Shown in pieces: positions 387-18,265 of a stretch of 64,000 bases of DNA. The stretch's first letter is position 1, and every line of letters begins with the position of its first letter. The DNA is from an uncultured delta proteobacterium (GTDB lineage Bacteria > Desulfobacterota > Zymogenia > Zymogenales > Zymogenaceae). The notes under the pieces are model-generated. The model did not search any database. It was not told the DNA's origin and worked only from the letters and a program-made list of their open reading frames with translations. The stretch is from assembly GCA_963792965.1 (NCBI GenBank), contig CAWBYW010000007.1, positions 256,001-320,000 of the forward strand, read 5' to 3'. Both the position numbers and the translations under genes were made by a program.

Positions 387-1481
387 CTAACCCATGATTT
401 TTTCTAATCTATCGCCGGGACCGGTGATGTAGCCCCATTTCGCCTCGGGATCTTTTTCCTTGAGGTTTTTCAGGGCCCGCTTCTTCTTGGTGAGCGACGA
501 CTCTTTCAGATGGGTCAGCCGGTCGTCCGACAGCGGCTCTACCCTTATGGCGCCCTTATCACTGGCCTTTTTGACGACCTCTGCCCCCTTATTTGTCCGG
601 ACGATCAGGACGTTTTCGGCGGGGTTCTCTTCCAGCACGCCTACCGAGATATCGGCAAACTCGGAGGTCATATCGATGCAGTTTCGGCACGACTCCTTCA
701 CGAACGGCCGTATATCGGAGAGCGGGAAGGTAAGCTTCCCCTTCTTGGTCTCCACCACGAAGGTCTCCGCCGGCGGGGGTGGAATGTCGAAGCCGGTGAT
801 CTCGGCAATCGTTACGTGATCCTTGAGGTACCCGAAGAGTTTCCTATAATCCAGGGCCCAGGTGCAAAAGAGCCCGATGACGAGAGCGACGGCATCTCCC
901 GGATTGCGCTCGATTGCCTCCGTCGATCGCATCTTGGCCACCGCCGTTGCCTGGCACGGCGTCCCGACGACCGCCACCTTTGTGTACCCGTCTTTCGCCG
1001 CCCTGTTGAGGGCCGCGAGCGTCGGCGCCGCGCTGTATTTCGAGCCGGCGGTCTTCCTCACGTCCTCTCCTCTGGTCACGACCTCCGCCACGGGGAGAAC
1101 ACCCTCCGAGCCGGTGAGGACCGCGGCATCGATGGCCCCCTCGCTGAAGAGAAACTCGAGGAGCGACGTGACCGTCCCCCCTGCCTGGTAATGCCCGTCC
1201 TTCGCAGCTCTTGCGCGGTAGATTCCCCGTGAGCTGCCGATCGGGCCTGGGTCGTAGGCCGTCCCGATCACTTTTTGCGAGATTAGGTCGAGGTCAAGCT
1301 CGGTCTTCGGACAGAAGAGAAAGCACCTCCCCTCTTCTTTGTCGCACGGGTCAAGGCTGATGGTCTTTCCCAGAAAGGAGGTAAAATAGGGACAGAGCCC
1401 CACGCATGCCCCGCATCCGCTGCAAAGCTCGCCGGAAATTACCTCCGTCACGAGCCGTTGGGGTCCTCGGGAATTTGTCAT
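387..1481 (-). CDS. FrhB/FdhB-family (F420 hydrogenase/dehydrogenase beta-like) FAD/Fe-S protein
   Basis: N-terminal CxxCxxCxxxCP; GGTVT, AGSKY, VVGTPCQ, IGLFC, CxxCxD-ADISVG motifs. Confidence 0.85.
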   Translation of the reverse strand: MTNSRGPQRLVTEVISGELCSGCGACVGLCPYFTSFLGKTISLDPCDKEEGRCFLFCPKTELDLDLISQKVIGTAYDPGPIGSSRGIYRARAAKDGHYQAGGTVTSLLEFLFSEGAIDAAVLTGSEGVLPVAEVVTRGEDVRKTAGSKYSAAPTLAALNRAAKDGYTKVAVVGTPCQATAVAKMRSTEAIERNPGDAVALVIGLFCTWALDYRKLFGYLKDHVTIAEITGFDIPPPPAETFVVETKKGKLTFPLSDIRPFVKESCRNCIDMTSEFADISVGVLEENPAENVLIVRTNKGAEVVKKASDKGAIRVEPLSDDRLTHLKESSLTKKKRALKNLKEKDPEAKWGYITGPGDRLEKIMG

Positions 1482-1668
1482 ATAAACGCCTCCACTTCTT
1501 CCATGAGGTGAAATCCGAGAGAGATCGGCAATTCGCGGTTATCGTTGTTATCGTGTCGACGGGCGGGCATCGCCCGATAGTCACCGCGAATCGATGAATA
1601 AGTTACCGGCATCCAACATGCCGCATAAATTGAAAGCGTACCATAATACCCCAGTAACTTAATATTGA

Positions 1669-1697
1669 ATTATACCCTAAATCAGCTCCAAAGTCAA
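1669..1697 (-). promoter_or_regulatory. sigma70-type promoter for the frhB-like/iorA unit
   Basis: TTGACT-17 nt-TATAAT on the minus strand. Confidence 0.75.
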
Positions 1698-1742
1698 ACA
1701 TATGGTTCCGAGAAAACTCCTTCGATGGTACAGGTACCATTC

Positions 1743-2897
1743 TTAAAATGGCGGCGATACGGTGTTGATGGATAGCACGTCCTGCAGGTTGATCTCCGCC
1801 TTCGTCTGCTGCCCGTTGACAACGCGCGTGAAGAGCGTTATGAAGTCCTCCGTCGCTTCTTTCATCTCCGTCCCTTCCAGGAGCCTGCCGGCATTCACAT
1901 CCATGTCGTCGGCCATGTTGCGGAAGAGCTCGCTGTTTGAGGCAACTTTGATGAGCGGCATCACCGGAAACCCAACCGGCGTGCCGCGGCCCGTCGTGAA
2001 TATCATGACCTGGGCGCCGCCGGCGGCCATGCCCGTTATGGAGTAGACGTCAGACCCCGGGGTATCCATGATGACAAAGCCCTTCTTCGTCGGGGCAACG
2101 GCGTAATCGGATATCTCCCGCAGCGGCGTGGTGCCCGCCTTGATGATACATCCGAGAGATTTTTCCATGATGTTGGAGAGCCCCCCCTCGATATTTCCGG
2201 GAGAGATCACCATATGCGCCAGCGGCCCGAGGACATCCTCGGCCTGCTTTCGCTGTTTCTTGATGAGATCGACGATCTGCTTTCCGATCTCGGGACTTTG
2301 AGCCCTCCGCGAAAGGACCTCTTCTGTCCCGATCATCTCGGTGGTCTCCGCCAGCATCGTCGTCCCCCCCTGAGAAACCAGCCAGTCGGAGAGGCTTCCC
2401 ACAAGCGGATTTGCCGTGACACCCGAAAGCGCATCGGACCCCCCGCAATTCGTGGCCAATATAAGCTCTTCCCAGCCACACTCCTGACGCGTGAGGCCCT
2501 CGGTATCCTGAAGGAATTTTCGGGCGATCTCGATACCGGCCTCGGTCGTTTTGCGGGACCCTCCCTTCTGTTGTATCACCAGCGACTCGACCGGCTTTCC
2601 GCTCTGCGCAATGTCGGAGGCAAGCCCACCGGCCGGGAGGAACTCACACCCGAGCCCGACCACAAGGATTGCCGCCACGTTCGGGTTCTTCCCCAATCCC
2701 GTCAGCGTCCGGTAAGAGATGGCAATATCGGCCGGTCCCCTACCGCATCCCTCGGTATGCGTGATAATCTTTATCTCGGGCAGCGCGCGCCCTATGGCGT
2801 TGACGACCCCGTTGGCGCATGAGACGGAGCTCATCACGACGACATGGTTGCGTATTCCCACCTTACCGTCCGGCCTCCTATATCCCATGAAACCCAT
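1743..2897 (-). CDS. UxaA-family dehydratase/sulfo-lyase large subunit (UxaA/GarD/SuyB-like)
   Basis: GYRRPDGKVGIRN, HTEGC, VGLGCE, CGGSD, GNIEGGL..EKSLG, FTTGRG motifs. Confidence 0.9.
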   Translation of the reverse strand: MGFMGYRRPDGKVGIRNHVVVMSSVSCANGVVNAIGRALPEIKIITHTEGCGRGPADIAISYRTLTGLGKNPNVAAILVVGLGCEFLPAGGLASDIAQSGKPVESLVIQQKGGSRKTTEAGIEIARKFLQDTEGLTRQECGWEELILATNCGGSDALSGVTANPLVGSLSDWLVSQGGTTMLAETTEMIGTEEVLSRRAQSPEIGKQIVDLIKKQRKQAEDVLGPLAHMVISPGNIEGGLSNIMEKSLGCIIKAGTTPLREISDYAVAPTKKGFVIMDTPGSDVYSITGMAAGGAQVMIFTTGRGTPVGFPVMPLIKVASNSELFRNMADDMDVNAGRLLEGTEMKEATEDFITLFTRVVNGQQTKAEINLQDVLSINTVSPPF

Positions 2898-2898
2898 G

Positions 2899-3165
2899 TC
2901 ACTCCTCCTGGGCCTTCAGGTTATGTGTGTGCACCCACTGACCGACGTGAATGTCTTCCTTCGCGAACCCTATCTTCTCTCCGTACTTGACCACCGGGGA
3001 GCTCTTTGGTATCTCCACGAGGGCCACCTTATGGTTCTTGGGAATATCGTCCCGCGCCTCGATAACGATTTCCTTCCCACGAGGCACCTTTTCCCCTTTT
3101 TTGAGCTCTCTTATGGCCACCCCAACGTTGTCCTCGGGATGAATCACGACGATACTATCCTGCAT
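2899..3165 (-). CDS. UxaA-family small subunit (SAF domain, SuyA-like)
   Basis: HPEDNVGVA..IPKNHKVAL..VVKYGEKIG..GQWVHTHN; start moved to ATG 3165 after AAGGAG. Confidence 0.85.
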   Translation of the reverse strand: MQDSIVVIHPEDNVGVAIRELKKGEKVPRGKEIVIEARDDIPKNHKVALVEIPKSSPVVKYGEKIGFAKEDIHVGQWVHTHNLKAQEE

Positions 3166-3238
3166 GGTAGTCTCCTTTCTCAAGTGAGCGTAGTCTTGCG
3201 GATAAAGCGGGTCTTCTTTCGAGAGGCCTCTATGTTTC

Positions 3239-3267
3239 AGATTAAACAGAAAGCTCCTTCTCGTCAA
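3239..3267 (-). promoter_or_regulatory. sigma70-type promoter for the UxaA-like pair
   Basis: TTGACG-17 nt-TAATCT on the minus strand. Confidence 0.55.
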
Positions 3268-3415
3268 CAGATTTATCACGGTGGACTGCATTTTTGATGC
3301 TGTACCGTCTCAACGTTTCCGCCTGAAGGCGCGAGTCTCCGGCCCCCGTACGCCGGACCGAGGCGATATCCCACCCTCTGCTCGAACCCGGCTCCGGTCG
3401 TTGGCGGGACCGTCT

Positions 3416-3976
3416 TTATCGGGGAGCGCGGAGATGGCCCCGATCGCTCTTCTTTCGGGGCGGCAGGGGGATGAGCATCGATACCTCTTTCCTGTATTGG
3501 ATGAATTCATCTCGAAAGTCGCGGACGAGCCACTTCTCTTCCACATAGACGATATAGAGAAACGCTCCCGGCAGACATAACACGACGTAGAGAAAGAGCC
3601 CCGTCGGCGAGCCCTGAAAGATCGGTATCGCAAGATAGGCCGAGATCACGCCGAAGATCATGGGGTTCCTCGTATAGCGGTAGGGACCTGTGGTGACGAG
3701 CCGCTCCGTCTTTGGACTGATGGTGACAAACTCGCCGTAGTGAAGCGGGCCGCCCCTTCCCCTCAGGGCCAGGAAGATATTGGCCCAGGCGATAAAGAGA
3801 AGACCGATGGAAAGGAGGAAGACGCCGAGGGGAGTCCGAACCGCCGCGCCTCCGATTTCGGGGAGCCCGAGGTACCGGTCGATCGCCACGTTGACATGGA
3901 TGATAAGATAGGGGACGAACACGCCGTGGAAACCGACACCGACGACAAGCCCTAAGATGTGCCTGATAGTTTTCAC
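3416..3976 (-). CDS. ICMT/PEMT-family membrane methyltransferase
   Basis: Hydrophobic helices; LVTTGPYRYTRNPM and EEKWL..F...F..YRKEV motifs; GTG start at 3976 after GGGAG. Confidence 0.8.
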   Translation of the reverse strand: MKTIRHILGLVVGVGFHGVFVPYLIIHVNVAIDRYLGLPEIGGAAVRTPLGVFLLSIGLLFIAWANIFLALRGRGGPLHYGEFVTISPKTERLVTTGPYRYTRNPMIFGVISAYLAIPIFQGSPTGLFLYVVLCLPGAFLYIVYVEEKWLVRDFRDEFIQYRKEVSMLIPLPPRKKSDRGHLRAPR

Positions 3977-4097
3977 GCGTGCGGTCTCCCGACGGACTCG
4001 ACCAATCTGCAGCGCGAATCTCGCGAAGACGAAGAGGTTTCCGGAGGATCCAGGACAACAACTCCGGCGCCCACCGGCTTCATCGAGCCGGAGCCTC

Positions 4098-5528
4098 TTA
4101 ATCCTGTTTCTTCGCCGCCCCGAGCATCTCCCAGAGAGGTCCCCTGATTCCCTGCATCCTGAACGGCGCGCCGAGCCCGCGATCGTATCGGTCGGGCCGC
4201 ATCGTCCCTGTAAAATCCTGTCCTGCCATGACCATCTGGCCCGGAACAAGCCAGTAGGGGCGGCTCATGGCGCGCTCATGGACAAAAGAGACGACCTCGT
4301 CTGCCACCGACGGGGCGATGTAGAATATCGGGGAAAGGCCGATATTTCGCGCCTCGTCCATTCCCTCTTCCACCGCCAGCCTCTGGAGGCCCGTTCCCGG
4401 AAAGATCCTGATGCCCACCATGGCGTGGTGCGCCGTAGGGGAGAGTTCGTCGACCAGGTCGGCCGTCTCCCGCATTGTTTCGGGGGTCTCTCCCGGGGCG
4501 CCGAAGATGATATTGAGACAGGTCATGATCCCGACCGAGTGGGCGATCCTGACCGCGCTCACGACATCGTCCCGTGTGAAGTTCTTGCCGAGCCGCACAA
4601 GCACTGGGTCGGTCAGGCTGTCGGCACCGAGGTCGACACCGGCCAGCCCGGCCTCGGCGAGATCCTTCAAAAGTCTTTCGGTGATAAAGGCGGGCGAAAA
4701 ATAGGCCGAGAGACGCACTTTAAGGTGCCTCTTGATTATTTCTCGAGCGATCTGTTGCGCGTGCTCGGGCGGGTTGTTGAAGACGCTGTCGACGATAAAG
4801 AAGCTGTCCACTCCCCACTGCTTGAGCGAGAGCTCTATCTCGTCGACTACCGCCCTCGGCTCCCTTACCCTCACCAACCTCCCTTCGACCACGGGATAGG
4901 TGCAATAGATGCACCCGAAGGGACAGCCCCGTTTCGTCTGCACGCTCCCCATCCCGCCCCATTTCAGATATGCGGCGTTGTCGCAGAGGTCACGGGCGGG
5001 GAGCCCGATCGCGTCGATATCGGCGATCGCCTTAGGACGATTTCGAATCACCGTATTACCGTCCTTCATCGCGATCAGGCCCGGGACACCGCCGACGTCT
5101 CTCTTCTCAGAAAGCGCACTGATGAGCGCTACGATTGCCTCCTCACCGTCCCCGACGATGCCCATGGTCTCCGCGAGGGCCGAAAGCATCTGTTCCGGCA
5201 TCATGGTGAAGCCGGATCCGCCGAGCACCACGGGTCCGGTAAACGCCGCCCTGATGGCCCGCATCATATCGATAGTGTCGTCCATATAAGAAACGGAGAG
5301 CGGGTAGGCCACATTGTCGATATTGCGGATCGACACACCTACCACGTCGGGACGAAACGAGCCGATCTTCCGAGCTATTGCGTCGTGTACGCTGTCCGCA
5401 AAGCAGACATCCAGCATATCCACAACGTGCCCGGCTCCCCTCGCAGCCGCGGCCACGTAGGCCGCCCCGAGCGGATAGACCGGGTCCGGCGTCACCTCCC
5501 TGTTCGCAGAAACGATGAGTACCCTCAT
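4098..5528 (-). CDS. B12-binding radical SAM protein (lipid-biosynthesis-associated type)
   Basis: PVYPLGAAYVAA, SIRNIDN, LGGSGF B12 domain; TKRGCPFGCIYC; DSVFN; GIRIFPGT. Confidence 0.85.
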   Translation of the reverse strand: MRVLIVSANREVTPDPVYPLGAAYVAAAARGAGHVVDMLDVCFADSVHDAIARKIGSFRPDVVGVSIRNIDNVAYPLSVSYMDDTIDMMRAIRAAFTGPVVLGGSGFTMMPEQMLSALAETMGIVGDGEEAIVALISALSEKRDVGGVPGLIAMKDGNTVIRNRPKAIADIDAIGLPARDLCDNAAYLKWGGMGSVQTKRGCPFGCIYCTYPVVEGRLVRVREPRAVVDEIELSLKQWGVDSFFIVDSVFNNPPEHAQQIAREIIKRHLKVRLSAYFSPAFITERLLKDLAEAGLAGVDLGADSLTDPVLVRLGKNFTRDDVVSAVRIAHSVGIMTCLNIIFGAPGETPETMRETADLVDELSPTAHHAMVGIRIFPGTGLQRLAVEEGMDEARNIGLSPIFYIAPSVADEVVSFVHERAMSRPYWLVPGQMVMAGQDFTGTMRPDRYDRGLGAPFRMQGIRGPLWEMLGAAKKQD

Positions 5529-5570
5529 ATATCTCCCTTAATTTTCACTGCACGGAGCCGCACGATCCCG

Positions 5571-7115
5571 TCATCCGTCTTTTCCCACGACGAGACAGGT
5601 ACCTTTGTTCGTCTTCTCTATACGATACCCCTTCTTCCGCATGTAAACGTCAAACGTGACGTAGTTTGTCTGGTGCTTCAGTTGCGTGTCCGTCAGCGTC
5701 CGGTAAATGAGCTTCATGAGTGAGCGGTAGTTCCGTCTTATAAAGGGGTTCTTCGAAAAGAACATCTTATAGACAACCCTGGGCCTCAGGTGATATCTCC
5801 CCTGTATCTTTTCGGCCGTTTGCAACATCTTTTCGTGGGGTACCGCGTCCGTCTCGATGACGGGGGTGAACATGTCCCAGTGGTCCCAGTCATAATCTTT
5901 GATCAAACCGTTGTTCAGGTAGTATTCATAGTAGGGCGTCCCCGGGACCGGGGTGAACATCTGCAGGGCGAAGATGTCGGCGTAATCCTTCACGAGATAG
6001 TAGGTCTCGAGGAGGGTCTTTTCGGTGTCGTCCTTGTGACCCCACATGATATTGGTGAGAAGTACCAGCTCGTGCTCCTTTGCCGCCCTCATGGCTCGTT
6101 TGACCATCTCTACACTCTGGTTCTTGTCAAAATCATCCAGGACGTGCTGGTTGGCGGTTTCCACACCGAAGGAAATCTGGTAGAGGCCCAGTTTTTTGAG
6201 CTTCGGGATCAGTGCGACGTCGCGGATGAGCTGCTCGGCACGGGTCTGAAACCAGAAGGTGATCCCCGTAAGGTTTCGCGCGGACAGCTCGTCGATGAAT
6301 TCGAGGACCCGATCGCGGCTCCAGTTGAAGGAGTTGTCCACGAAGTAGAAATTGGTCCGATGGAACTCCTTGTTGAGAAGCTCCATCTCGTCCACCATAT
6401 TCTTTGCACCTCTCGCCCGCCAGACATGGTGCCAGAACGAAGTCTCGGAGCAGAATCGGCACTTCCCGAAGCACCCACGCGCGGTGGACAGAAAAACCGA
6501 CTCATAGGGAACCATCCCGAGCGTCGGGAAGTAATAGGGCATCACGTGGCTTTTATGGTCGGTCGACGCAAGGAGCGGCAAGAGGTGATAGGCGGGCATC
6601 GGCAGTGTATTGATGTCGGCGATGAGCCCGCGGTCCGGCGTCTGGATGAACTTTCCCTTATCGAGGTAGGCAAGGCCCTTGATCTTCGTGAAGTCCTTCT
6701 CTCCTTTTTCGAGGGCGCGCGCAAGCTCCGCAAACGGCAGCTCGCCCTCACCGCGCACGATGAAGTCGATGGCGCCGTTTGAGCGCAGGCTTTCCTCGGG
6801 CAGCGCCGTCATGTGCGCCCCTCCCCCCACGACGACGACTTTCGGATCGATTAGTTTTGCGAGAGAGGCTACGTGAAAGGCGTTATTGACGGTATTGGTG
6901 GAGTTGTTTGATATCCCCACGATATCGGGGCGACCGCGCGTCAGGATGTCCTCGAGGTCCTGCCAGCAGTTGTCGAATGTGGTCGCGTCGAGGATCTCTA
7001 CCCGGTGCCCTTCCTGTTCCATATAGGCCGCGAGCGCCACCACTCCGGGCGAAGGCACATGTCCCATGAAATATTTGAATACTTGCTGCGGTGGATCGAC
7101 TATAAAGATCTTCAT
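5571..7115 (-). CDS. B12-binding radical SAM protein (class B methyltransferase/BchE-like)
   Basis: GGAHMT, RGEGE, TARGCFGKCRFC, FGVET, FTPVPGT motifs. Confidence 0.85.
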   Translation of the reverse strand: MKIFIVDPPQQVFKYFMGHVPSPGVVALAAYMEQEGHRVEILDATTFDNCWQDLEDILTRGRPDIVGISNNSTNTVNNAFHVASLAKLIDPKVVVVGGGAHMTALPEESLRSNGAIDFIVRGEGELPFAELARALEKGEKDFTKIKGLAYLDKGKFIQTPDRGLIADINTLPMPAYHLLPLLASTDHKSHVMPYYFPTLGMVPYESVFLSTARGCFGKCRFCSETSFWHHVWRARGAKNMVDEMELLNKEFHRTNFYFVDNSFNWSRDRVLEFIDELSARNLTGITFWFQTRAEQLIRDVALIPKLKKLGLYQISFGVETANQHVLDDFDKNQSVEMVKRAMRAAKEHELVLLTNIMWGHKDDTEKTLLETYYLVKDYADIFALQMFTPVPGTPYYEYYLNNGLIKDYDWDHWDMFTPVIETDAVPHEKMLQTAEKIQGRYHLRPRVVYKMFFSKNPFIRRNYRSLMKLIYRTLTDTQLKHQTNYVTFDVYMRKKGYRIEKTNKGTCLVVGKDG

Positions 7116-7161
7116 GGACGCCTCACGGTCGGTCGGCCGCCTCTTCTGATTCGGCCGTCGT

Positions 7162-8277
7162 TCAAATGGATTTTTGATAGACCCTGAACTTCTTCACCAG
7201 TTTCAGTCTCAGGTTGACGATCGCCCGGTTCATCTTGTGATTATCCTCCCTGACCCAGCTCGCCTCAAGCCGTGCATTTTTGCCAGACAGGACGTGAAAG
7301 ATATGATAATAGAGCAGCGTGTCCAGCGCCTTGTTCTGGTACTCGGGGATAAGCCCCATCCCCAACAGGCGATACTGACGGAGTTTCTTGACGCCGTACT
7401 TGATCTTAAAGACGCCCAGCGGAAAGAGCGAGCCGTTGAGCTCCTTAATGATCACGTTAATGTCAGGAAGCGCTATCGCATACCCGATCGAGGTTGTCCC
7501 CTTTTCCATGATGAAGACACAGTCAGGGTCGATAATATCTTTGAAGTCATTCACGATGCCGTCCACCTCGGGGGCCTCGACGGGAATGTAGTTCCAGTCT
7601 CCCTCGTTGGCGTCGTTGGCCACCCCGAGGATCGCCGTCACGTCACGTCGGATATTTTTCAGGTCGATCCCCCTCACGCGCACGTTGTAGCGCCGCACAA
7701 GGCGATCGTAATGCCTTGTAAAGCGCTCCGGAAAGTTATATTTTTCCAGCACGTCGCCGTAGTAGCCGTTCATGTCCATGTTCTTGGAAAACTCCGCGTC
7801 TTTGGCCAGGTCGTCGTAGTAGGGGAAGTTATAGGGAGAAAGGACCGTATGGGGCTGATCGAAGCCCGCCACAAGAAAGCCGACGCTCTGGGAGGTGAAA
7901 TTGAGGGGGCCGCGCATCTTTTCCATACCGCGGGCTTTCAGCCACTCGGCCGCCTTCTCAAAGAGCGCCCGTGAGACTTCCTTGTCGTTTATCGAGTCAA
8001 ACGAGCCGAAAAAGCCGAGCGGCTCGTTCCAGTAGCTGATGTAGCCGTGGCTGACGAATGCGGCGATCCTCCCCTTGACCACATCGCCCCTTCTGGCCAC
8101 GAAAAGGGCCGCGTCGCACGTCTTGAAAAAGCCGTTCTTCTTGAAATTGAACTCTCTCTTCGTCACAAATCTGAGCGGCGGCACCCACACGGGGTGGTTC
8201 TTATAGAGGTCGTAGGGGACCTGGATGAAATCCTTGAGATCACGCCGGCCGGTGACTTCTCTGACGTCGACACCCAT
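7162..8277 (-). CDS. Double-GNAT N-acyltransferase, YghO/bacterial ceramide synthase-like
   Basis: WVPPL, GRIAAF, GFFGSF, WLKARG..MRGP, PYNFPYY, ALPDIN, SWVREDN motifs as recalled for this family. Confidence 0.65.
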   Translation of the reverse strand: MGVDVREVTGRRDLKDFIQVPYDLYKNHPVWVPPLRFVTKREFNFKKNGFFKTCDAALFVARRGDVVKGRIAAFVSHGYISYWNEPLGFFGSFDSINDKEVSRALFEKAAEWLKARGMEKMRGPLNFTSQSVGFLVAGFDQPHTVLSPYNFPYYDDLAKDAEFSKNMDMNGYYGDVLEKYNFPERFTRHYDRLVRRYNVRVRGIDLKNIRRDVTAILGVANDANEGDWNYIPVEAPEVDGIVNDFKDIIDPDCVFIMEKGTTSIGYAIALPDINVIIKELNGSLFPLGVFKIKYGVKKLRQYRLLGMGLIPEYQNKALDTLLYYHIFHVLSGKNARLEASWVREDNHKMNRAIVNLRLKLVKKFRVYQKSI

Positions 8278-8417
8278 CGGGACTATTTACCTTTCGATGA
8301 CTGATAGTATGAAGGGTATATATATCACCGAAAGGCGAGATAAATCAAGGAGTTTTCAAAGGATTTCTACGGGACGGCGATTGGAGCGACATGAGGGGTA
8401 ACTCGTACGTTGACCGG

Positions 8418-9230
8418 TTATATCTGACCAAAGAGCCGTCTTACTTTTCGGGTATCCATCTGGAACCGCACTTTCGGATTCTTCTCTCTGAGCATCTCGA
8501 GAAGCTTTCGCGAATCATCGCCGGACAGATCGTAAAAATTCGCAAAGTAGACTTTCTTACTCCCTTCTTTATTCGATAGCACAAGGCAGGCCCGTGCCCG
8601 TGCGTTCGCTCCAAAACCACCGGCTCGCCCTTCCGTCCGGAGGTATTTCGCGATATCAACCGATGTTATCAGATAAGCCGTAAATAGGTCCCCGGCACCC
8701 CCTGGATCCCCTTGAGACAAGACCCGTCCGTTCCCTGAGACGGCACCCTGCGCTGTGAGAAAGGCGTCCAGGGACTCCTCGCGAGATATGCCATACTTTT
8801 TCGTCAGGTTATGTTCAGTAAGGTCGTGTTCGCTTCTTGGAATTTTAAACGGCTGGAGGTGTCTCAGAAATTTTATAATGAAGTCGATTTCTCTCTCCAG
8901 GTAGTAAACAAAGGCAATCTCACCAAAGAAGATCTCCTGATGTGTCCCTGCCCTGATTACGTTATCGCCCGCGTATGAGGTGATGAGGAGACGATCGTTA
9001 AATATCCGGACTTCTACGGAAAAATGAAACACCGTGTGAAAAAAAATAGGCATACCCGGAAGCACGCCCATGACGACGATCGCAAGAAAAGAGACCACCT
9101 GGTTTCTCATGATAATGCCCACGAGAAGAGCGGCGATTTCAAGGACGAAAATAACGTAAAAGAGGGATCTGTCATCCAGCAGGATTGCAGGTCTCAGTAT
9201 CACCGCAGTATTCTCGGAACAATCACGCAT
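8418..9230 (-). CDS. Hypothetical membrane protein (2 N-terminal TM helices)
   Basis: 270-aa ORF with two hydrophobic segments; no family recognised. Confidence 0.55.
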   Translation of the reverse strand: MRDCSENTAVILRPAILLDDRSLFYVIFVLEIAALLVGIIMRNQVVSFLAIVVMGVLPGMPIFFHTVFHFSVEVRIFNDRLLITSYAGDNVIRAGTHQEIFFGEIAFVYYLEREIDFIIKFLRHLQPFKIPRSEHDLTEHNLTKKYGISREESLDAFLTAQGAVSGNGRVLSQGDPGGAGDLFTAYLITSVDIAKYLRTEGRAGGFGANARARACLVLSNKEGSKKVYFANFYDLSGDDSRKLLEMLREKNPKVRFQMDTRKVRRLFGQI

Positions 9231-9403
9231 GGCTACGTTAGTCGAAGAGGGAGACGCATCCCTTCAGGAAGCGGTTTGGGATTGAATACCTCGGAAAGAT
9301 TACCATAAAGACGGGTCTCGTGCAAGACATGACGCGCTCCAAAAGAGCAAGGAAGATCCAGTCTCTCCCGCTCCAACGGCAATCAAGGCAGTACAGTATT
9401 CCC

Positions 9404-9432
9404 TTGACTTCCTTTTTTGTCTCGAATATTGT
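9404..9432 (+). promoter_or_regulatory. sigma70-type promoter for the porin gene
   Basis: TTGACT-17 nt-TATTGT. Confidence 0.6.
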
Positions 9433-9653
9433 TAACACCTTCTAATAATTAGTGTCTCTTTTTCCGGAGGGTGCAAACGTCCAGGCGATTGATCGGACAA
9501 CCATAACAGCCGTCCGAACCATTTGCACGTCTATACGGAGGCAAAATGAAGACCGACGATCATGTGCGGCGCGATGGTATATATTTTCCCCCGGGTAGGA
9601 GACATAGATCTACCGCCCGAGGTAACCTTAATTTTAAATACCAGGAGGCAATT

Positions 9654-11390
9654 ATGAGAAAGGTCTGGATTTTGGCAATAGTCGCTCTGGCCCTGGTTGC
9701 GACCAACATCCCTTCATTTTCCGCGGAGACTACCTTCTCGGGCAGCTATCGAATACGCTCGGTGATCGATTACAACTGGGAAAAGCAAAACATGGCAAAT
9801 CACCCCGAAGGCAGAGATCTCTATACGGGCTACTTCGACCAGAGATTCAGGCTCACCATTACGCATAAGCGGAGCGAGTACCTCAAGGCCGTTGTAACCA
9901 TCGACCTAGCCGAGGATATCTGGGGCCAGCAGAGAGGGATGCGCTTCAACGATAGCGACGGCACCACCGATGGATTTGTCAACTCGGCCTACATCGAGGC
10001 GCTCACCCCCATCGGCCTTTTCCAGCTCGGAACAAACGGCGAAAACCGGTTCGGCTACGGCCTGTGGTCCGACTCGGGGGTCAGGGGCAACGGAACCAAC
10101 AACGCGACCATTACCTACGCCGTCAAGGTCGGCAACTTCATCGCCACCGCGAGCTATGTAAAATATATCGACTGGGTGCAGTCAGTCTTTACGATACCCA
10201 TATTCCCCGGTACTCATCTTTCCGATCTTACGGGCGGCCCCACGTCCACCTACTACAACGATGATATCGACACGTACATAGTGACCGCTCACTATATCAC
10301 CGATAAATGGAAGGTCGGCGGCCTCTTCCAGTGGATCCTCGACCCCAAAATCCTCGGCGCGGTGGTTATGGCGCGAGGCGTCGCCGATATCGGTGGTTTC
10401 CCCGGGTCCTTCAGGGGGGAGGAACAGTGGATGTCCCCGTTGGGAGTGCCGTCGATTGCTTTAAACGGCGGCCTTTACTGGCCGACCCCTGCCGGCCCGA
10501 ACGCGGTCGGTTTCGGGCGCGCCGGCATGTACGGTGCCAACCTCCTCGCATGGGACATCTACGGCGACGTAAAACTCCTCAATGACAGGTTGGAGATCAA
10601 GGGTGAGTTCCTCCGGGTCTGGGGGAAGAGCAATCGTAACGCACTCGGAGACGCGTACAACAACTATCTGGCAACACGGGTAGTTCTCCCACCGCTTTCC
10701 GTCTACCGGATTCCCGAGACGATCGTCGTCGACGGCATGACCGCCTACCTGGACGTCTCATATGACTTTGATGCCTGGAAGGTCGGCGTCGCCGCCCTCT
10801 ACGGTTCGGGAGAGAACCACTGGCGGGCTTTTACGCAGTCGCATTACAACCTAAACACTACCGGTAATTTTGACTTTCACTGGAGTAACATCATCGTACC
10901 GGGCGATTGGATGTACCTTGGCTCCACGGGATCCGGCAATTTCTATAGTTTCCCTCTTGGTCTCGGCGACAACCCCGAGAACATCACCTCGGTGAAGCTT
11001 TACTGGTCGGCAACCCCGACGGAAAAGCTCGAGATTCGCGGCGCGTTCGTATGGGCCAAGTATACAAACCCCGTCGGCCGGTACGCACGGGATGCGGCAG
11101 GCAACCTGGTCCCCAACTGGAACGCCTTCTACGGCCATCCGATGAATTACATACAACAGTCCAGTTTAATACCCGGCAACACCTATATCCCGGCGGGTGT
11201 GAGCGATCAGCTCGGCTGGGAGATCGATCTCGGGGCGACCTACAAGATCATGGAAGGACTGACCTTGGATTCGGACTTCGGCGTCCTGTTTACCGGGGCT
11301 GCCTTCGATTATCGCAATCCCGCCACCTTAGAGCGGGAGAGCTGGGGGCCGATCTATCGCTGGATCAATACGCTTACCTATGAGTTCTAA
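9654..11390 (+). CDS. Outer-membrane beta-barrel (porin-like) protein
   Basis: AGGAGG then ATG 9654; signal peptide MRKVWILAIVALALVATNIPSFSA; FSGSYRIR..YFDQRFRL start; C-terminal LTYEF beta-signal. Confidence 0.8.
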   Translation: MRKVWILAIVALALVATNIPSFSAETTFSGSYRIRSVIDYNWEKQNMANHPEGRDLYTGYFDQRFRLTITHKRSEYLKAVVTIDLAEDIWGQQRGMRFNDSDGTTDGFVNSAYIEALTPIGLFQLGTNGENRFGYGLWSDSGVRGNGTNNATITYAVKVGNFIATASYVKYIDWVQSVFTIPIFPGTHLSDLTGGPTSTYYNDDIDTYIVTAHYITDKWKVGGLFQWILDPKILGAVVMARGVADIGGFPGSFRGEEQWMSPLGVPSIALNGGLYWPTPAGPNAVGFGRAGMYGANLLAWDIYGDVKLLNDRLEIKGEFLRVWGKSNRNALGDAYNNYLATRVVLPPLSVYRIPETIVVDGMTAYLDVSYDFDAWKVGVAALYGSGENHWRAFTQSHYNLNTTGNFDFHWSNIIVPGDWMYLGSTGSGNFYSFPLGLGDNPENITSVKLYWSATPTEKLEIRGAFVWAKYTNPVGRYARDAAGNLVPNWNAFYGHPMNYIQQSSLIPGNTYIPAGVSDQLGWEIDLGATYKIMEGLTLDSDFGVLFTGAAFDYRNPATLERESWGPIYRWINTLTYEF

Positions 11391-11423
11391 ACAGCGCGTT
11401 TCTCAGACGATACGCCGATGACG

Positions 11424-11447
11424 AGGGGGGCTGAAAGCCCCCCTTTT
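11424..11447 (+). terminator. Intrinsic terminator after the porin gene
   Basis: AGGGGGGCT-GAA-AGCCCCCCT followed by TTT. Confidence 0.75.
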
Positions 11448-11520
11448 CCTTAGGCGATTAGTGAGAACAGAGGAGAACAGGAATGCTAAGAAGATTCAGT
11501 AGCAAACCTGGTAACAGACG

Positions 11521-11554
11521 AAATAAAAGGGATTACGGAAGACCGTAACCCCTT
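11521..11554 (-). terminator. Intrinsic terminator after tRNA-Asn
   Basis: Minus strand AAGGGGTTACGG-TCTT-CCGTAATCCCTT then TTATTT. Confidence 0.75.
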
Positions 11555-11562
11555 AATAGTGC

Positions 11563-11638
11563 TGGCTCCCCGGGCAGGACTCGAACCTGCGGCATGATGG
11601 TTAACAGCCATCCGCTCTACCGACTGAGCTACCGAGGA
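11563..11638 (-). tRNA. tRNA-Asn(GTT)
   Basis: Cloverleaf TCCTCGG..GATGG-CTGTTAA-CCATC..GGTTCGAGTCC..GGGGAGCCA. Confidence 0.97.
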
Positions 11639-11712
11639 ATATGTAATTCTATTATACTACCAGACGAAAGAATAATTTCAAGAAAAAAAAGGCCGTCTCT
11701 AAAATATCGGCC

Positions 11713-12306
11713 TTATCCACCCGCCCCCTTTCTCAGTTCGATGAGCACGAGTTTAGCGACCGCTTTGAGCGTTTCGAAAACGCCGGTCCCCTCGGTGGCC
11801 ACCGACTCAAAGTCGGGCACAGTATTGGGGTTGAGTAGCGATTTCATCTCGGTGACCGGCGCGGCGTTCGGCAGGTCCCGCTTGTTATATTGCACGACGT
11901 AGGGAATCACCTCAAGGTTATAGCCCTGCTCGATAAGGTTTGATTTCAGGTTCTCGATGCTCTCGATATTGGCCTCCATCCGCTCGATCTGGGAATCGGC
12001 CACGAAGACGACGCCGTCCACCCCCTTCAATATCAGCTTCCGGCTCGCATCGTAGAAGACCTGGCCCGGCACCGTGTAGAGATGGAACCGGGTCTTGAAC
12101 CCCCTGATCTCGCCGAGTGAAAGGGGTAGGAAGTCGAAAAAGAGCGTCCTCTCGGTCTCGGTCGCCAGGGAAATCATCTTTCCCTTGGCGTCCGGGTTGG
12201 TCTTTTTATATATCCATTGGAGATTTGTCGTCTTGCCGCAGAGACCGGGACCGTAATAGACGATCTTGCAGTTTATCTCTCGTGCTGGATAATTGATGAA
12301 GGACAT
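11713..12306 (-). CDS. mglA: Small GTPase MglA
   Basis: [51 protein letters not shown]. Confidence 0.97.
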
Positions 12307-12322
12307 CGAATACCGCTCTCCT

Positions 12323-12811
12323 CTATTCGCTAAAGAGCCTGTCTATATCTTCGTCGGTAATCTCCGCAAAGGGCGAAGCGCCCTCGGCCGTCTTCGCCTC
12401 GACCTTCTTGAGCAGATCATCGAAGATGACGGTCAAGTCTTCTCCGGCTTTTTTCGCCCTCAGCCGAACCAGCCCGAGGGAGGACCGCTCGTCGAAGATG
12501 ATCACCATGATGACGCGCCGGCCCACGATCGAGATATAGATATTATCCCGATACCCCTCGTGGAAGATGATGGTAAATTCTTTCTCCCCGAGGAGTTTCG
12601 CGATGCTCCCCGTGGCGGCGATGTTTCCTGCCGTCAGCGAAGCCAGAGAGGTTGTGTCGAGGTTCTCCGTCTCACCGGTGCTGGCGATGAGCTGCCCGTT
12701 TCTGTCTACTAAGAAAATGACCTTGGAGTTGGTTTCGGAGTAGAGTTTCGTCAAGACATCGTTGATCTTTTTGAACTCTTCTTCGTAGAGGATAAGCTGT
12801 GTGAAGCTCAT
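12323..12811 (-). CDS. mglB: Roadblock/LC7 GAP MglB
   Basis: [45 protein letters not shown]. Confidence 0.95.
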
Positions 12812-12894
12812 CTACTGTCTCCCAAAATAGCCCGCGTACCCAAGAGTTTCATTTATACCAAAGGGTAATGAAAATATCAACACTTTTTTCAATT

Positions 12895-13614
12895 TTATCT
12901 ACAACTGAAACAGAGATCGTAGAAATCCTCGGGCAGGTTTGCGATCTTTCTGATGTAGTCAAGCTGCCTCTTCGGCCCGATATACATCCCACAATTCTTG
13001 CACGTTGCGAGCTCAAACTCGACCTTCCAGTTGTAGATATACCGCTTGCCGTCCCTATCCTCCATCTTGATATAGTTCGTGGGACATACCCAGACGCACG
13101 AGCCGCAGCCGATGCAGGTCTCCGACGCCTCCGCAAACGGCGTCGTCGGCATGCGCTTGGGACCACGGTAAGAGAAGCCGAGCGCGTTGACCCCCACCAC
13201 CTCGCTGCACGCCCGCACACACTGACCACAGACGATGCAGTCGTCGTCGGTCTCAACGAGCCTTCCCCCTTTCACGCCGAGACGATCGGCCAGGGCGAGT
13301 ATCGTCTTGTTTTTCGGTGCCCGCGCCAACAAGAGCTCCATGATCACGTTCCTGGTCTTGACGACCTTTTCCGTATCGGTCCTTACGATCAAGCCCTCCT
13401 CCGCCGGATAGTTGCAGGAGGTCACGACCCGCGTCCTTCCGGCCCTCTCGATCTCAACCAGACACATGCGGCACGCACCGTAGGGCACGAGGGCGTCGTT
13501 GTTGCAGAGCGTCGGGATATAGACGTTTTTCTTACGGGCGGCTATCAGGATGGGCTGCCCCGCTTTAACCTTCTCGGGGGAATCGTTGAGCGTAATGGTA
13601 ATCATATCGTCCAT
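12895..13614 (-). CDS. Short NuoG/HoxU/BamI-like Fe-S subunit (2Fe-2S + 2x4Fe-4S, no catalytic domain)
   Basis: IPTLC..GACRMCLVE..TSC; CIVCGQCVRAC; CIGCGSCVWVCP; C-terminal CxxC..CxxC; start estimated at ATG 13614. Confidence 0.85.
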   Translation of the reverse strand: MDDMITITLNDSPEKVKAGQPILIAARKKNVYIPTLCNNDALVPYGACRMCLVEIERAGRTRVVTSCNYPAEEGLIVRTDTEKVVKTRNVIMELLLARAPKNKTILALADRLGVKGGRLVETDDDCIVCGQCVRACSEVVGVNALGFSYRGPKRMPTTPFAEASETCIGCGSCVWVCPTNYIKMEDRDGKRYIYNWKVEFELATCKNCGMYIGPKRQLDYIRKIANLPEDFYDLCFSCR

Positions 13615-13622
13615 GGAAACCT

Positions 13623-15497
13623 CTACCGTATTTTCACCGCGTCCACCGGGCAGATCTCGAAGCATGCCCGGCAGCGGATGCAGATCGATTCGTCGATAAC
13701 GTGGGGGACTTTCTTCTCGCCCGTGATACAGTCGACCGGGCAGACCTTCTTACACTTGCCGCAGGCGATGCAGGTCTCTTTGTCGATAAAGAGCGTAATC
13801 AGCTTTGCGCAAACACAGGCGGGGCACTTCTTGTCACGGATGTGGGCCTCGTATTCATCACGGAAGTACCTGATGGTCGACATGACCGGGTTGGGAGCGC
13901 TGCTGCCGAGCCCGCAGAGCGAGCCGAGCATCATCCCTTGGCCGATCTCCTCCAACAGCTCTATGTCGCCTTCCTTTCCGTTTCCTTCTGTGATGCGGGT
14001 GAGTATTGCGAGGTACTGTGGAAGCCCCTCCCGGCACGGGGTGCACTTTCCGCACGACTCATCAACAAGGAAGTTGATGAAGTAGCGCGCCACGTCCACC
14101 ATGCAGTTCCCCTCGTCCATGACGATCATGCCGCCCGATCCCATCATCGACCCGAGCTTAGTCAGCTCGTCGAAGTCCACCGGCGTGTCAAGGTAGGACG
14201 CGGGGATGCATCCGCCGGACGGCCCACCTGTTTGAACGGCCTTGAACTTCTTGTCACCCCGGATGCCGCCGCCGATATCGTAGATGATCTCGCGCAGCGT
14301 CAGCCCCATGGGCACCTCGACCAGGCCGACGTTCTTGACGTTTCCTACCAGGGAGAAGACCTTGGTGCCTTTGCTGTTTTGAGTCCCGATGCTCTTAAAC
14401 CAGTCGGCGCCCCGCGTGATGATCAAGGGGACGTTGGCCCAGGTTTCCACGTTATTGAGGTTGGTGGGCATGTCCCAGAGGCCCTTCTCGGAGGTGTGGA
14501 TATATTTCGCCTGTGGCTCGCCGGCCTTACCCATGATTGACTGCATGAGGGCCGAAGACTCGCCGCAGACGAACGCCCCGCCGCCCCGATTTATCTCGAC
14601 GTCAAAGGAAAAGCCGCTTCCCAGGATGTTATCGCCCAAGAGCCCATATTCCTTGGCGTCTGTGATGGCCTGTGCGAGGTTCTTGACCGCCAGCGGGTAT
14701 TCCATCCTGACGTAGATGTATCCTTTCGGGGCGCCGATGGCAAACGCGCCGATAATCATTCCCTCGATGACGCTGTGAGGGGCTGCCTCCATGATCGAGC
14801 GGTCCATGAAGGCCCCGGGATCTCCCTCGTCGCCGTTGCAGACGACGTATCTGGTCGTGCCCGGCGCTTTCTTCGTCGTTCGCCACTTCCGCCCGGCCAC
14901 GAAACCGCCCCCGCCGCGTCCCCTCAATCCCGCCTTCTCCACCTCATCGATGATCCGGTCGGGTTCCAGCTCGGTCAGCGCCTTGGCGAGGCCCGCGTAG
15001 CCACCATGTGCGATGTAGTCGTCGATATCCGTGGGAACGATCTTCCCGTTGTCCCTGAGCACCAGCCTCATCTGGTGCTTATAGAAGGGGATGTCTTCCT
15101 CATGAGCGATCTTCTGCTTGGTATTCGGGTCCTGATAGAGGAACTTATCGTGGGGCACGCCCTCCACGAGGGTCTTCGTGATCAATTCGCCGACCGCTTT
15201 TGCGGTCACCTTCTGATAGAAGATCCGCTGTGGCGCGAAGATGACCAGCGGCCCGCGCTCACAAAACCCTGCGCAGCCGGTCATCCGCACGTTGACGTTG
15301 GCCTGTATCCCCTGATTTTTCAGCTCTTCCTCGAAGGCTCGGGCGACATCGAGGCTCCCGTTGGAGAGGCACCCCGTCCCGCCGCAGACGAAGATCGTCT
15401 GCTGATTCGGGTCCTGTTTTTCAAGGATCGATTTTCGATGGGCTTCAAGAGCAGCCGCCGATTCCAGTCTCATCGCATCAAACCTTTTTAGTGCCAC
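13623..15497 (-). CDS. HydB/NuoF-like FMN/NAD(P)-binding subunit
   Basis: [42 protein letters not shown]-terminal 2Fe-2S domain and C-terminal 2x4Fe-4S domain. Confidence 0.93.
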
Positions 15498-15682
15498 CCG
15501 TCGACATCCGGAGGATGCGTGCGGGGCTGGGCAAAGAGTATGTGATAAAGAGATCTATTGAGAGGACGTTGCCTACCTCACGATAAAGGCGATGTGCCGT
15601 CTCTCTTCAGATCCGACCTGATTAACGTCTTTCGCTCAAAGAGCCGTAACGATGCGCAGCGCCGCCGAGACGGCATATGTGG

Positions 15683-16151
15683 TCAGCTCTTCGTCTTATA
15701 GAGATCCAATATCTTCTTGATCTTATCGAGCGTCATCTTCCCGTGGTTTTCCTCGTCAACCTGCACCAGCGGCGCAAGGGCGCAGGCACCCAGGCAGTTG
15801 ACCGTCTCAAGGGTAAACTGCTTGTCCTTCGTCGTCTGGCCCGCCTTGACCCCGAGGGTGCCGCTCGAATCCTTCGGCGATCCGCTTCCCCCCGGAGATG
15901 TGGCACGCCGTTCCGAGGCATACCCGGACCTCGTGCATACCACGGGGGACGAGCGAAAAGGTCTTATAGAAGGTGGCGACATGATATATCTGCGGCTCGG
16001 GGATGCTCAGCACCTCGGAGAGCCTCCTGACCGCCTCGCGCGGCACATATCGAAACCGCGTCTGGATATCCTGCAGCATCAGTATGACCCTCGAGGGGTT
16101 CTTCCCGTAGTTCTCGATAACGTCGTCAACCTGCGATACATCGTAATCCAT
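15683..16151 (-). CDS. HydC/NuoE-like 2Fe-2S subunit; apparent +1 frameshift near 15862
   Basis: VATFY..VCLGTACH in one frame and TLGVKAGQTT..FTLETVNCLGACALAP in the next; removing one base joins them. Confidence 0.88.
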
Positions 16152-16154
16152 GGC

Positions 16155-17093
16155 TCACCCGATCTCTAGTTTTGTCAGCGCGACGAGTTTTTCGTATTCT
16201 TCCGTCACCCGCCTCTGGATGAGGTCGATGTCCTTGTCCGTGAGGTGCCGAAATCTCCCCTGTCCCGCAAGGTAGTCCCGGACCGGCCTCAGCTTCGGCA
16301 CGTCCATGGTGAGGCGATACTTTCCCTTCACGACCTCAAAGAGCGGGAATGCCCCGGTTTCAACGGCGAGCCTCCCGTACTTGATGGCCAGATGCGACGG
16401 GATGCGCCAGCCGGTGGGGCAGACCGACAGGACATGGAGGTAGGCAGGTCCCCCCGACTCGATGGCCCGCCCTACCTTTGTCTGGAGATCGAAGGGATAG
16501 CTCGAGCAGGACGTGGCGACGTACGGAATATTATGCGCCACGGCGATGGCCGCCATGTTCTTTTTCCACGTATGCTGTCCGACCGAGTCCTTCCCCGCGG
16601 GCGACGTCGTCGTTGCGGCGCCGTAGGGGGTTGAGCTTGACCGCTGGATGCCGGTGTTCATGTACGCCTCGTTATCGAAGCAGACGTAGATGAAGTCCTC
16701 GTGCATACGCTCCAGCGCCCCAGAAAGCGCCTGGAGCCCGATATCGGTCGTCCCGCCGTCGCCGCCCATACCCACCGAGATAATCCGCTTCTTCGGGATC
16801 TTCCCTTTTCGCTTCAGCGCCTTTAAGCCCGCGGCTACGCCCGAGGCGACCGCGGCCGCGTTCTCGAACGTAACGTGGATCCAGGGCACCTTCCAGGAGG
16901 TCAGCGGCAGCGGAGAGGAAACGATCTCCATGCAACCCGTGGCGTTGGAGATGACGATGTCCCGCCCGAGGGCCTTTAACACGTGCCGGACGGCCAGCGC
17001 CTCCGCGCAACCCTGACAGGCCCGATGGCCGGAGGTGAAGTTTTCTTCCCGGTTGGTCAGATTGGGAACGTAGACGGTATATTGGTCGATCAT
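16155..17093 (-). CDS. porB: Pyruvate/2-oxoacid:ferredoxin oxidoreductase beta subunit
   Basis: GHRACQGC, NATGCMEI, GGDGGT TPP motif, DNEAYMNTGIQRS, CPTGW. Confidence 0.93.
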   Translation of the reverse strand: MIDQYTVYVPNLTNREENFTSGHRACQGCAEALAVRHVLKALGRDIVISNATGCMEIVSSPLPLTSWKVPWIHVTFENAAAVASGVAAGLKALKRKGKIPKKRIISVGMGGDGGTTDIGLQALSGALERMHEDFIYVCFDNEAYMNTGIQRSSSTPYGAATTTSPAGKDSVGQHTWKKNMAAIAVAHNIPYVATSCSSYPFDLQTKVGRAIESGGPAYLHVLSVCPTGWRIPSHLAIKYGRLAVETGAFPLFEVVKGKYRLTMDVPKLRPVRDYLAGQGRFRHLTDKDIDLIQRRVTEEYEKLVALTKLEIG

Positions 17094-18265
17094 TCTCTCA
17101 CCCCCACCATCACGAATTCATTCCACCTCCCCTTCTTTACGCCGTCCATCGCCGCATCATACATCTCGATGAACTTCTCAGGCGGGACGTCCCTGCCCGA
17201 GAGGCCGGCGATGTACGAAAAAACGTTGGGCCGCTTGTCGAGACGGTAGAGAGCCGTCTTGATCTCGGAGGCCAGCGGCCCGCCGACCCCGCCCACCGAG
17301 AGGGCCCGATCCACCACGAGGAGATTCCTGAATTTCTCAAGCGTGCTGATCACATCATCGTACGGGAAGGGCCGAAAGAGCCGGAACTTTACCAGCCCCA
17401 CCTTCTTACCCTCGTCTCTGAGCCGATCGACGACCTCCATGCCGAGCTCCCCGTAGCTCCCGATCGTCACGAAGACGGTGTCGGCGTCATCAGTCCGGTA
17501 TTCCTCCAGCGGCGTGTAGCGCCGACCCGTGATCCGCTCCCATTCTTCCCACACCTGTGTGATCACCGCGTAGGAGCCGCGCAGCGTCGCGTCGTGGGCC
17601 TTCTTGGTCTCGGTAAACATCTCCGGCATGGCAAAGGCGCCCATCGTCACGGGGTGGTCCGGGTGGAGGGTATAGAGGGGAGCGAACGGGGGCAGGAAAT
17701 CTCTCACCGTTTTTTCATCCATCGTCTCGAAGGGCTCGATGACATGGCTGAGGATAAATCCGTCCATATTGATCGCGACGGGCAAGAGCACCCTTCGGTC
17801 TTCCGCGATCTTGAAGGCACAGATCGTCTGGTCGAAGCTCTCCTGTCCGCTCTCTGCAAATATCATAATCCAGCCGCAGTCCCGGTTGGCCATGATGTCG
17901 CTCTGATCATTCCAGATCGAGAGGGGCGCAGACAACGTCCGGTTGACCACCGTCATCACGATAGGAAGCTGCATCGCCGATACGACGTAGAGGAGCTCGC
18001 TCATGAGCTGCAGCCCCTGGGAGCTCGTGGCGGTATACGTGCGGGCGCCGGCCGCCGAGCTTCCGGCGCAGGCGCTCATCGCCGAGTGCTCGCTCTCCAC
18101 GCAGATATATTCCGCGTCTACCTTCCCGTCGGCCACCAGCTCCGACAGGTGCTCCACGATGTGGGTCTGGGGCGTAATGGGGTAGGCCGCGATAACGTCC
18201 ACGTCGACGAGCTTAACCGCCTCAGATACCATGAGTGATACTTCCATTCCGAGACGTTTGCCCAT
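17090..18265 (-). CDS. porA: Pyruvate/2-oxoacid:ferredoxin oxidoreductase alpha subunit
   Basis: AAYPITPQT, ESEHSAMS, TATSSQGL, NR.LSAPLSIWND. Confidence 0.93.
   Translation of the reverse strand: MGKRLGMEVSLMVSEAVKLVDVDVIAAYPITPQTHIVEHLSELVADGKVDAEYICVESEHSAMSACAGSSAAGARTYTATSSQGLQLMSELLYVVSAMQLPIVMTVVNRTLSAPLSIWNDQSDIMANRDCGWIMIFAESGQESFDQTICAFKIAEDRRVLLPVAINMDGFILSHVIEPFETMDEKTVRDFLPPFAPLYTLHPDHPVTMGAFAMPEMFTETKKAHDATLRGSYAVITQVWEEWERITGRRYTPLEEYRTDDADTVFVTIGSYGELGMEVVDRLRDEGKKVGLVKFRLFRPFPYDDVISTLEKFRNLLVVDRALSVGGVGGPLASEIKTALYRLDKRPNVFSYIAGLSGRDVPPEKFIEMYDAAMDGVKKGRWNEFVMVGVRE

Follow-up and report, generated by a model that had tools for sequence, protein, structure and literature searches.

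A 64,000-nucleotide stretch of contig CAWBYW010000007.1 (the window), from an uncultured delta proteobacterium of the family Zymogenaceae, carries a four-gene cluster encoding a tandem GNAT N-acyltransferase, two B12-binding radical S-adenosylmethionine (SAM) enzymes and a membrane methyltransferase. The cluster is a real, modestly conserved and undescribed combination of known enzyme families. We suggest, with a probability of roughly 45%, that the last three genes form a lipid-tailoring module behind the amide-forming GNAT, the four together producing one amide-linked membrane lipid in a branch of Candidatus Zymogenia. The suggestion draws on what the genes encode, on the predicted folds and residue patterns, and on a gene order shared with some relatives. 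The four genes are:

7162..8277, minus strand: tandem GNAT N-acyltransferase of the YghO/bCerS (bacterial ceramide synthase) family, 371 aa; a lineage-core gene at this locus
5571..7115, minus strand: rSAM1, B12-binding radical SAM enzyme, 514 aa; outside the named families, nearest model BchE
4098..5528, minus strand: rSAM2, B12-binding radical SAM enzyme, 476 aa; TIGR04072-like, on the TsrM/BzaD side of the family
3416..3976, minus strand: PEMT/ICMT-family integral-membrane SAM methyltransferase, 186 aa, GTG start

An original prediction made from the DNA letters had described co-oriented genes of these families, and this description holds. All four open reading frames (ORFs) lie on the minus strand, separated by 46 nt (GNAT-rSAM1), 42 nt (rSAM1-rSAM2) and 121 nt (rSAM2-PEMT), and the assignments to bCerS/YghO-like tandem GNATs, TIGR04072-like B12 radical SAM enzymes and PEMT proteins were supported. 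Both radical SAM proteins contain the CxxxCxxC motif (C215/C219/C222 in rSAM1, C202/C206/C209 in rSAM2) and pass the Pfam cut-offs for the B12-binding and Radical_SAM domains (PF02310 and PF04055 in rSAM1). They are as divergent as had been claimed, sharing 25% identity across 384 columns. GC content at third codon positions (GC3) is 0.73-0.76 in the four genes, the same as in core genes, and horizontal acquisition was rejected on this basis. A scan of positions 2800-9700 found neither a consensus promoter immediately before the GNAT gene nor clear intergenic terminators. Rfam detected no riboswitch across the window, its matches being five tRNAs and the signal recognition particle RNA.

The GNAT protein (ACYLTRANSFERASE, 371 aa) aligned with E. 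coli YghO at 28.4% identity over 99% of the query (E = 1e-45). The gene yghO is an ortholog of Caulobacter CC_1154 according to the available text of PMC9386255, and the E. coli copy matched here has spt, acp, an epimerase gene and an acyl-AMP ligase gene as neighbours. Scored against YghO rather than against the query set of that paper, the protein passes the bCerS homolog filter (E ≤ 1e-30, coverage ≥ 50%) given in the accessible part of PMC11334938; further background on bCerS is found in sections of PMC11087976 and PMC10865984. Pfam returned only a weak GNAT-domain match, no NCBIfam model matched, and sequence searches of the PDB gave spurious RecA and SecY matches only, with no solved bCerS relative. 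The AlphaFold model (predicted local distance difference test, pLDDT, 88) matched tandem GNATs, the fold expected of bCerS, and the protein is predicted to be soluble or peripheral with no transmembrane segment. It retains 20 of the 23 residues invariant across seven reference homologs, none of them an assayed protein. Judged by homology and fold, the GNAT probably works like bCerS, transferring an acyl chain to a lipid amine.

rSAM2 scored closest to TIGR04072, which NCBIfam names a 'lipid biosynthesis' family. To our knowledge the family itself is uncharacterised. The comparison with its hidden Markov model (HMM), proposed as a check in the original prediction, gave a close match (357, E = 1e-106) that nonetheless missed the cut-off of 360. 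Two of four rSAM2 orthologs (P0254 and P0257) pass it, the four scoring 349.9, 342.8, 362.7 and 362.3, and all 84 aligned homologs match the model. Scores against BzaD (229.5, cut-off 450) and TsrM (187.7, cut-off 500) were far lower than these cut-offs. The nearest characterised relative is TsrM (E = 9e-47), and a plasmid search found distant matches only, the best being TsrT at 31%. In an alignment with TsrM, numbered by hand, R68 of rSAM2 coincides with R69, V249 lies at E273 and Y211 at E236. Every one of the 84 homologs keeps R68 and Y211, and seven of them have Glu at position 249. The available text of PMC12931638 describes a hydrophobic residue under the cobalamin of radical methylases and Arg69 in the non-radical TsrM, names E273 as the fourth cluster ligand of TsrM, and lists BzaD as a likely Csp2 methylase. 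The residue pattern is thus nearer to sp2-carbon methylases than to the sp3 lipid methylases first offered as models, and suggests that rSAM2 may be an sp2-carbon methylase. Its cluster can probably still bind SAM, because the capping Glu273 of TsrM is replaced by Val and Glu236 by Tyr. On a lipid, sp2 chemistry would mean a double bond; a heteroaromatic substrate would fit equally.

rSAM1 resembles no named family closely, scoring 241 against BchE (cut-off 481), 146 against HpnJ (578) and 119 against HpnR (650), at most half of what each requires. Its model (pLDDT 94) matched the folds of AprD4, MgmA, OxsB, TsrM, CysS and TokK at similar levels. In weak sequence alignments T73 lies at W76 of TokK, the hydrophobic residue beneath cobalamin in this radical Csp3 methylase, and N71 at TsrM R69, both rSAM1 residues being polar. 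Ring formations are listed for BchE, HpnJ and OxsB in the part of PMC13598231 available to us, and the polar residues give a weak hint that rSAM1 chemistry could be of a non-methylase kind such as ring formation. A basic C-terminal helix (residues 459-476) came from an amphipathic-helix scan run without a control and was not used as evidence. Atlas look-ups matched only generic B12-radical SAM and PEMT clusters.

The fourth protein belongs to the PEMT/ICMT superfamily (PF04191, 49.3 bits against a cut-off of 25), with three hydrophobic segments and the motifs LVTTGPY..RNPM and EE. The NCBIfam equivalog scores fell well short, at 30.4-31.5 of 270 for MddA and 20 of 160 for ICMT. SrsB and BpsB are also PEMT/ICMT membrane methyltransferases. 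A start at 3976 is supported by top matches aligning from query residues 1-5 and by the 185-aa ortholog in the relative L002, which has 75% identity and directly follows rSAM2; an alternative TTG start at 4249 was rejected as it overlaps rSAM2.

Methyltransferase genes also recur beside GNAT genes of this kind in other genomes, for which we took the best 80 of 574 loci (L numbers). A profile of 128 homologs found seven PEMT-family genes in 1.18 Mb of flanking DNA, all seven within 3.5 kb of the GNAT gene and on the same strand. They come from four lineages: L002, four Anaerolineaceae, one Bacteroidales fusion and one Saprospiraceae. The 3.5-kb zone makes up 41% of flank bases, and the chance of such proximity is about 0.01 when three lineages besides that of the query are counted and with the threshold chosen post hoc. 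In 18 of the 80 loci the gene immediately before the GNAT encodes a class I methyltransferase of one family, and in three more one of another family; these loci are mostly from related Anaerolineaceae and thus not independent. The best model for the class I methyltransferase, a glycine/sarcosine N-methyltransferase, scored far under the cut-off. Many other GNAT loci have unrelated neighbours.

Some of these loci are of interest in their own right. In Anaerolineaceae (L015, L031, L035 and L059; e.g. L015 8629-11116, plus strand) PEMT, class I methyltransferase and bCerS-like GNAT genes form a tight operon with no spt nearby, a candidate for a methylated amide-lipid pathway of its own. A Bacteroidales metagenome-assembled genome encodes a PEMT-PAP2-Lgt fusion protein 1.75 kb downstream of its GNAT gene (L047 12865-14802, plus strand). 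In KSB1-like bacteria (L008, L010, L021, L028 and L073) the GNAT gene lies between NfeD/SPFH genes on its upstream side and AmmeMemoRadiSam genes on its downstream side.

Taken together, these identities allow a four-step pathway to be proposed. At the cytoplasmic face of the membrane, the tandem GNAT would load a lipid amine with a long acyl chain drawn from acyl-coenzyme A (acyl-CoA) or acyl carrier protein (acyl-ACP). This amine would be a long-chain base if spt lies elsewhere in the genome and an amino lipid otherwise, the odds being roughly even. rSAM2 would then form methylcobalamin from SAM and methylate an sp2 carbon, for instance at a chain double bond (+14 Da), and rSAM1 would direct a 5'-deoxyadenosyl radical at an unactivated C-H bond, with a further methyl group, a ring or an oxidation as the outcome (+14 or -2 Da). 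Finally, the PEMT/ICMT protein may methylate a head-group N or O within the membrane. Of the anaerobic pathway to methyl-branched or ring-bearing amide lipids or sphingolipids first envisaged, a lipid product is plausible whilst a sphingolipid would be one candidate. A ceramide is an unlikely substrate in our estimate, accounting for about half of the probability given to the module. We would also give rather poor odds to the full scheme, in which two cobalamin-dependent radical SAM enzymes give Zymogenia ceramides methyl-branched or cyclic chains and a membrane methyltransferase methylates their heads.

Class-level relatives account for six of the 80 loci, with GNAT identities of 58-75%. Candidatus Zymogenia (Desulfobacterota) are predicted fermentative anaerobes in the available text of bioRxiv 10.1101/2021.03.22.436540, and rSAM2 homologs labelled 'Candidatus Zym...' occur among the matches listed. 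The cassette is intact in one of the six (L002, from another species), where all four genes keep the same order at 73-77% identity and rSAM1 and rSAM2 overlap by 4 nt; four of the six have the GNAT gene without the module. The sixth (L004, 58%), a Candidatus Zymogenus GNAT and the closest named relative among the matches listed, is on a stretch too short to judge. Matching contig sizes, which are circumstantial evidence, point to further linked copies on contigs of size 9138 (GNAT, rSAM1 and rSAM2) and 3591 (GNAT and rSAM1). Phylogeny was assessed in a quick GNAT tree of 71 rows (the window, 8 references, 23 of the 80 loci and 39 of 120 listed proteins), midpoint-rooted, with no bootstrap, and excluding the frameshifted L005 and most loci. 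There the GNAT falls in a Zymogenia clade (support 100) nested in a larger clade (SH-aLRT 97) of Anaerolineae, KSB1, Acidobacteriota and Bacteroidota proteins. Within a 12-member subclade, GNATs with linked radical SAM genes, as judged from this tree and the equal-size contigs, are found on either side of the basal split. Radical SAM linkage therefore looks ancestral in the subclade, and loss or relocation in the L001 line would be the simpler history. The rSAM2 tree has three Zymogenia groups, as does the GNAT tree, consistent with vertical inheritance.

Several observations weigh against a single amide-lipid pathway. The cluster belongs to a longer series of minus-strand genes that begins at 9230 and reaches the start of the window, and the minus strand holds 50 of 59 (85%) Pfam-matched genes (67 window ORFs submitted), so that co-orientation of the four is no evidence of an operon. 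In L002 the GNAT-rSAM1 gap is 179 nt, leaving room for a separate promoter. Conservation, which had been predicted, stands for L002 but not for L001 (GNAT 75%) and L005 (72%), which keep the MglA..GNAT..SAF/UxaA..FrhB locus without the three tailoring genes; L003 and L006 lack them as well. B12 radical SAM profiles matched only L002 among the 80 loci. Apparent rSAM1-rSAM2 pairs on contigs of size 118143, 25486 and 5863 have no partner on a contig of equal size among the 120 listed GNATs, which is again circumstantial evidence. The pair is broader than the GNAT linkage, so the stable unit would be rSAM1-rSAM2, with linkage to the GNAT confined to one branch. No fab, FabF or acp genes adjoining rSAM2 were found among Pfam-matched window ORFs. 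The threshold behind the PEMT enrichment was set after the data had been seen, and most methyltransferase loci belong to related Anaerolineaceae.

The GNAT itself adds to these points. Its clade has 10 clade-specific positions and is separate from the clade of E. coli, Sphingomonas and Roseomonas bCerS (99) and from the Bacteroides finegoldii homolog, which partly refutes the expected grouping with bCerS; its position between the two places it within the span of the family. spt and cerR, which the original prediction proposed to locate in the genome, did not appear near the GNAT gene: 11 spt/acp/cerR/aasR queries with strong positive controls found no spt in the window and the 80 loci (1.33 Mb), yielding two weak epimerase-like matches and one acyl-CoA-ligase-like match. 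By comparison, spt is linked in five of the eight plasmid reference GNATs inspected. The lack of linkage is nevertheless compatible with ceramide synthesis, because, in the available portions of the sources, Bacteroidota bCerS genes are unlinked to spt (PMC11334938), the cerS operon is reported as distinct from the spt operon (PMC11324152), and a B. fragilis cerS knockout accumulates 3-ketodihydrosphingosine (3-KDS; bioRxiv 10.1101/2023.05.23.541633).

Three other explanations were weighed. The GNAT could be a bystander, a housekeeping ceramide or amide synthase that opens a long series of co-oriented genes and behind which an independent rSAM1-rSAM2(-PEMT) module settled in one branch, the module acting on glycerolipid or ether-lipid chains or on acyl-ACP. 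The four class-level loci without the module, the pairs apparently on GNAT-free contigs in other Zymogenia and the strand bias all agree with this, as does the acetolactate-synthase-like gene that directly follows the GNAT gene in L001 (and L005). TIGR04072-type enzymes of Kuenenia and Desulfotalea are moreover described, in the accessible text of PMC2649909, in a fatty-acid-synthesis island with phytoene-desaturase-like genes. The retention of GNAT linkage on both branches of the subclade and the recurrence of PEMT genes beside the GNAT clade in unrelated phyla argue the other way, and we consider a bystander GNAT a serious though somewhat unlikely possibility.

It is distinctly unlikely, in our view, that the radical SAM pair is directed at something other than a lipid, methylating an aromatic or heterocyclic cofactor or small metabolite, as in BzaD/BzaE-like tailoring of the cobamide lower ligand or modification of a GNAT-acylated secondary metabolite. 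The nearest characterised relatives of rSAM2, TsrM and the BzaD model, are sp2-carbon methylases of heteroaromatics in the available text of PMC12931638, the TsrM Arg is retained in every homolog aligned, and a corrinoid protein and a pterin-binding methyltransferase at 38818-40275 (minus strand) indicate that the host uses cobamides. Yet the BzaD cut-off was missed by half, TIGR04072 scored 128 bits higher, the partner methyltransferase is of the integral-membrane type, and no bza, cob or other cobamide-synthesis genes were found among Pfam-matched window ORFs. A chance assembly of four unrelated accessory genes with no common pathway is very unlikely. Co-orientation is uninformative in this window and each relative has other genes on the upstream side of the GNAT, but rSAM1 and rSAM2 occur together in at least five of nine full-length close rSAM1 orthologs (one direct, four circumstantial), and the two genes overlap in L002. 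The amide-lipid module remains our preferred reading.

The surroundings of the cluster are partly shared with its relatives. Downstream, a SAF and UxaA-type dehydratase pair and an FrhB-like gene (387-3291, minus strand) are kept in all three close relatives; a thiamine pyrophosphate (TPP) enzyme and a major facilitator superfamily transporter of the L001 and L002 downstream region are absent from the window. An MglB-MglA pair (11713-12811, minus strand) anchors the locus, its MglA being 94-95% identical in L001, L002 and L005. Just upstream of the GNAT gene, a 270-aa membrane ORF (8418-9230, minus strand) with a low GC3 (0.54) and no Pfam or NCBIfam match is not present in L001, L002 or L005; it is probably a recent insertion outside the cluster. 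A 614-aa outer-membrane protein (9546-11390, plus strand), weakly like a Desulfovibrio-type homotrimeric porin (51.5 of 250), is likewise absent from the relatives' loci. Apparent frameshifts in the window at 15683-16151 (NuoE-like) and 20187-21849 (dnaX) and in L005 at 10001-17374 (GNAT, TPP enzyme and FrhB-like) are probably assembly indels, although the dnaX split could be a programmed frameshift. At 23358-26733 (minus strand), 15 kb from the cluster, two genes of the CrtI/phytoene-desaturase family stand in tandem, both scoring above the TIGR02734 cut-off and accompanied by a TetR gene (26764-27405); no phytoene synthase was found among the scanned window ORFs. The pair lies beyond the fetched flanks of the relatives, and ladderane-type islands combine such genes with TIGR04072 enzymes.

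If the amide-lipid reading is right, B12 radical SAM chemistry would extend to a new lipid class, amide lipids, with a compact system in which to test the ladderane-associated family and a possible biomarker for anoxic Desulfobacterota, which the available text of PMC11334938 treats as candidate sphingolipid producers. Were the substrate a ceramide, the cluster would provide the first case of a sphingolipid tailored by radical SAM enzymes, and the ladderane-associated TIGR04072 family would become open to biochemistry for the first time, through a four-gene system of a size that allows reconstitution. We found no report of such tailoring, or of this gene arrangement, in the open-access papers searched, and the accessible sections of PMC13459092 do not mention ceramide; the radical-SAM-modified ketoacyl lipids named there are ladderanes and the Jaw5 product. 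The bCerS-like clade, never linked to spt in the 80 loci and often beside methyltransferases, hints at an undescribed amide-lipid pathway. With a bystander GNAT, the remainder would be one more orphan B12 radical SAM pair.

Each protein has parallels in known systems, and each departs from them. The GNAT resembles bCerS (Caulobacter CCNA_01212/CC_1154, E. coli YghO/ECD_02850, B. fragilis BF9343_4218) in its length of about 371 aa, solubility and tandem GNAT fold, the likeness to the Caulobacter protein going via YghO rather than by direct alignment; unlike bCerS, its neighbours are methyltransferases, with no spt, acpR, aasR or cerR nearby. The PEMT/ICMT protein shares PF04191, hydrophobic segments and both motifs with MddA-type membrane methyltransferases whilst lacking an equivalog match. 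rSAM1 has the domain architecture of HpnP, HpnR, HpnJ, GrsA/B, Gmm and BchE (Grs and Gmm being likened by architecture, not sequence), and Gmm sets a precedent, being a B12 methylase whose gene neighbours that of the enzyme producing the lipid it modifies (section 2.5 of PMC13459092, as available). The substrates of the lipid-modifying members of this set are isoprenoid lipids and that of BchE is a porphyrin, unlike the amide lipid proposed here. rSAM2 shares with TsrM and BzaD, as Csp2 methylases, a lower-face Arg (R68) and homology across both domains, but lacks Glu273 and Glu236 of TsrM and scores far under both cut-offs. It stands 3 bits under the cut-off of TIGR04072, with two orthologs above it, and in place of the FabF/ACP island of ladderane-type systems it is accompanied by an amide synthase homolog and by another B12 radical SAM enzyme, unrelated to it.

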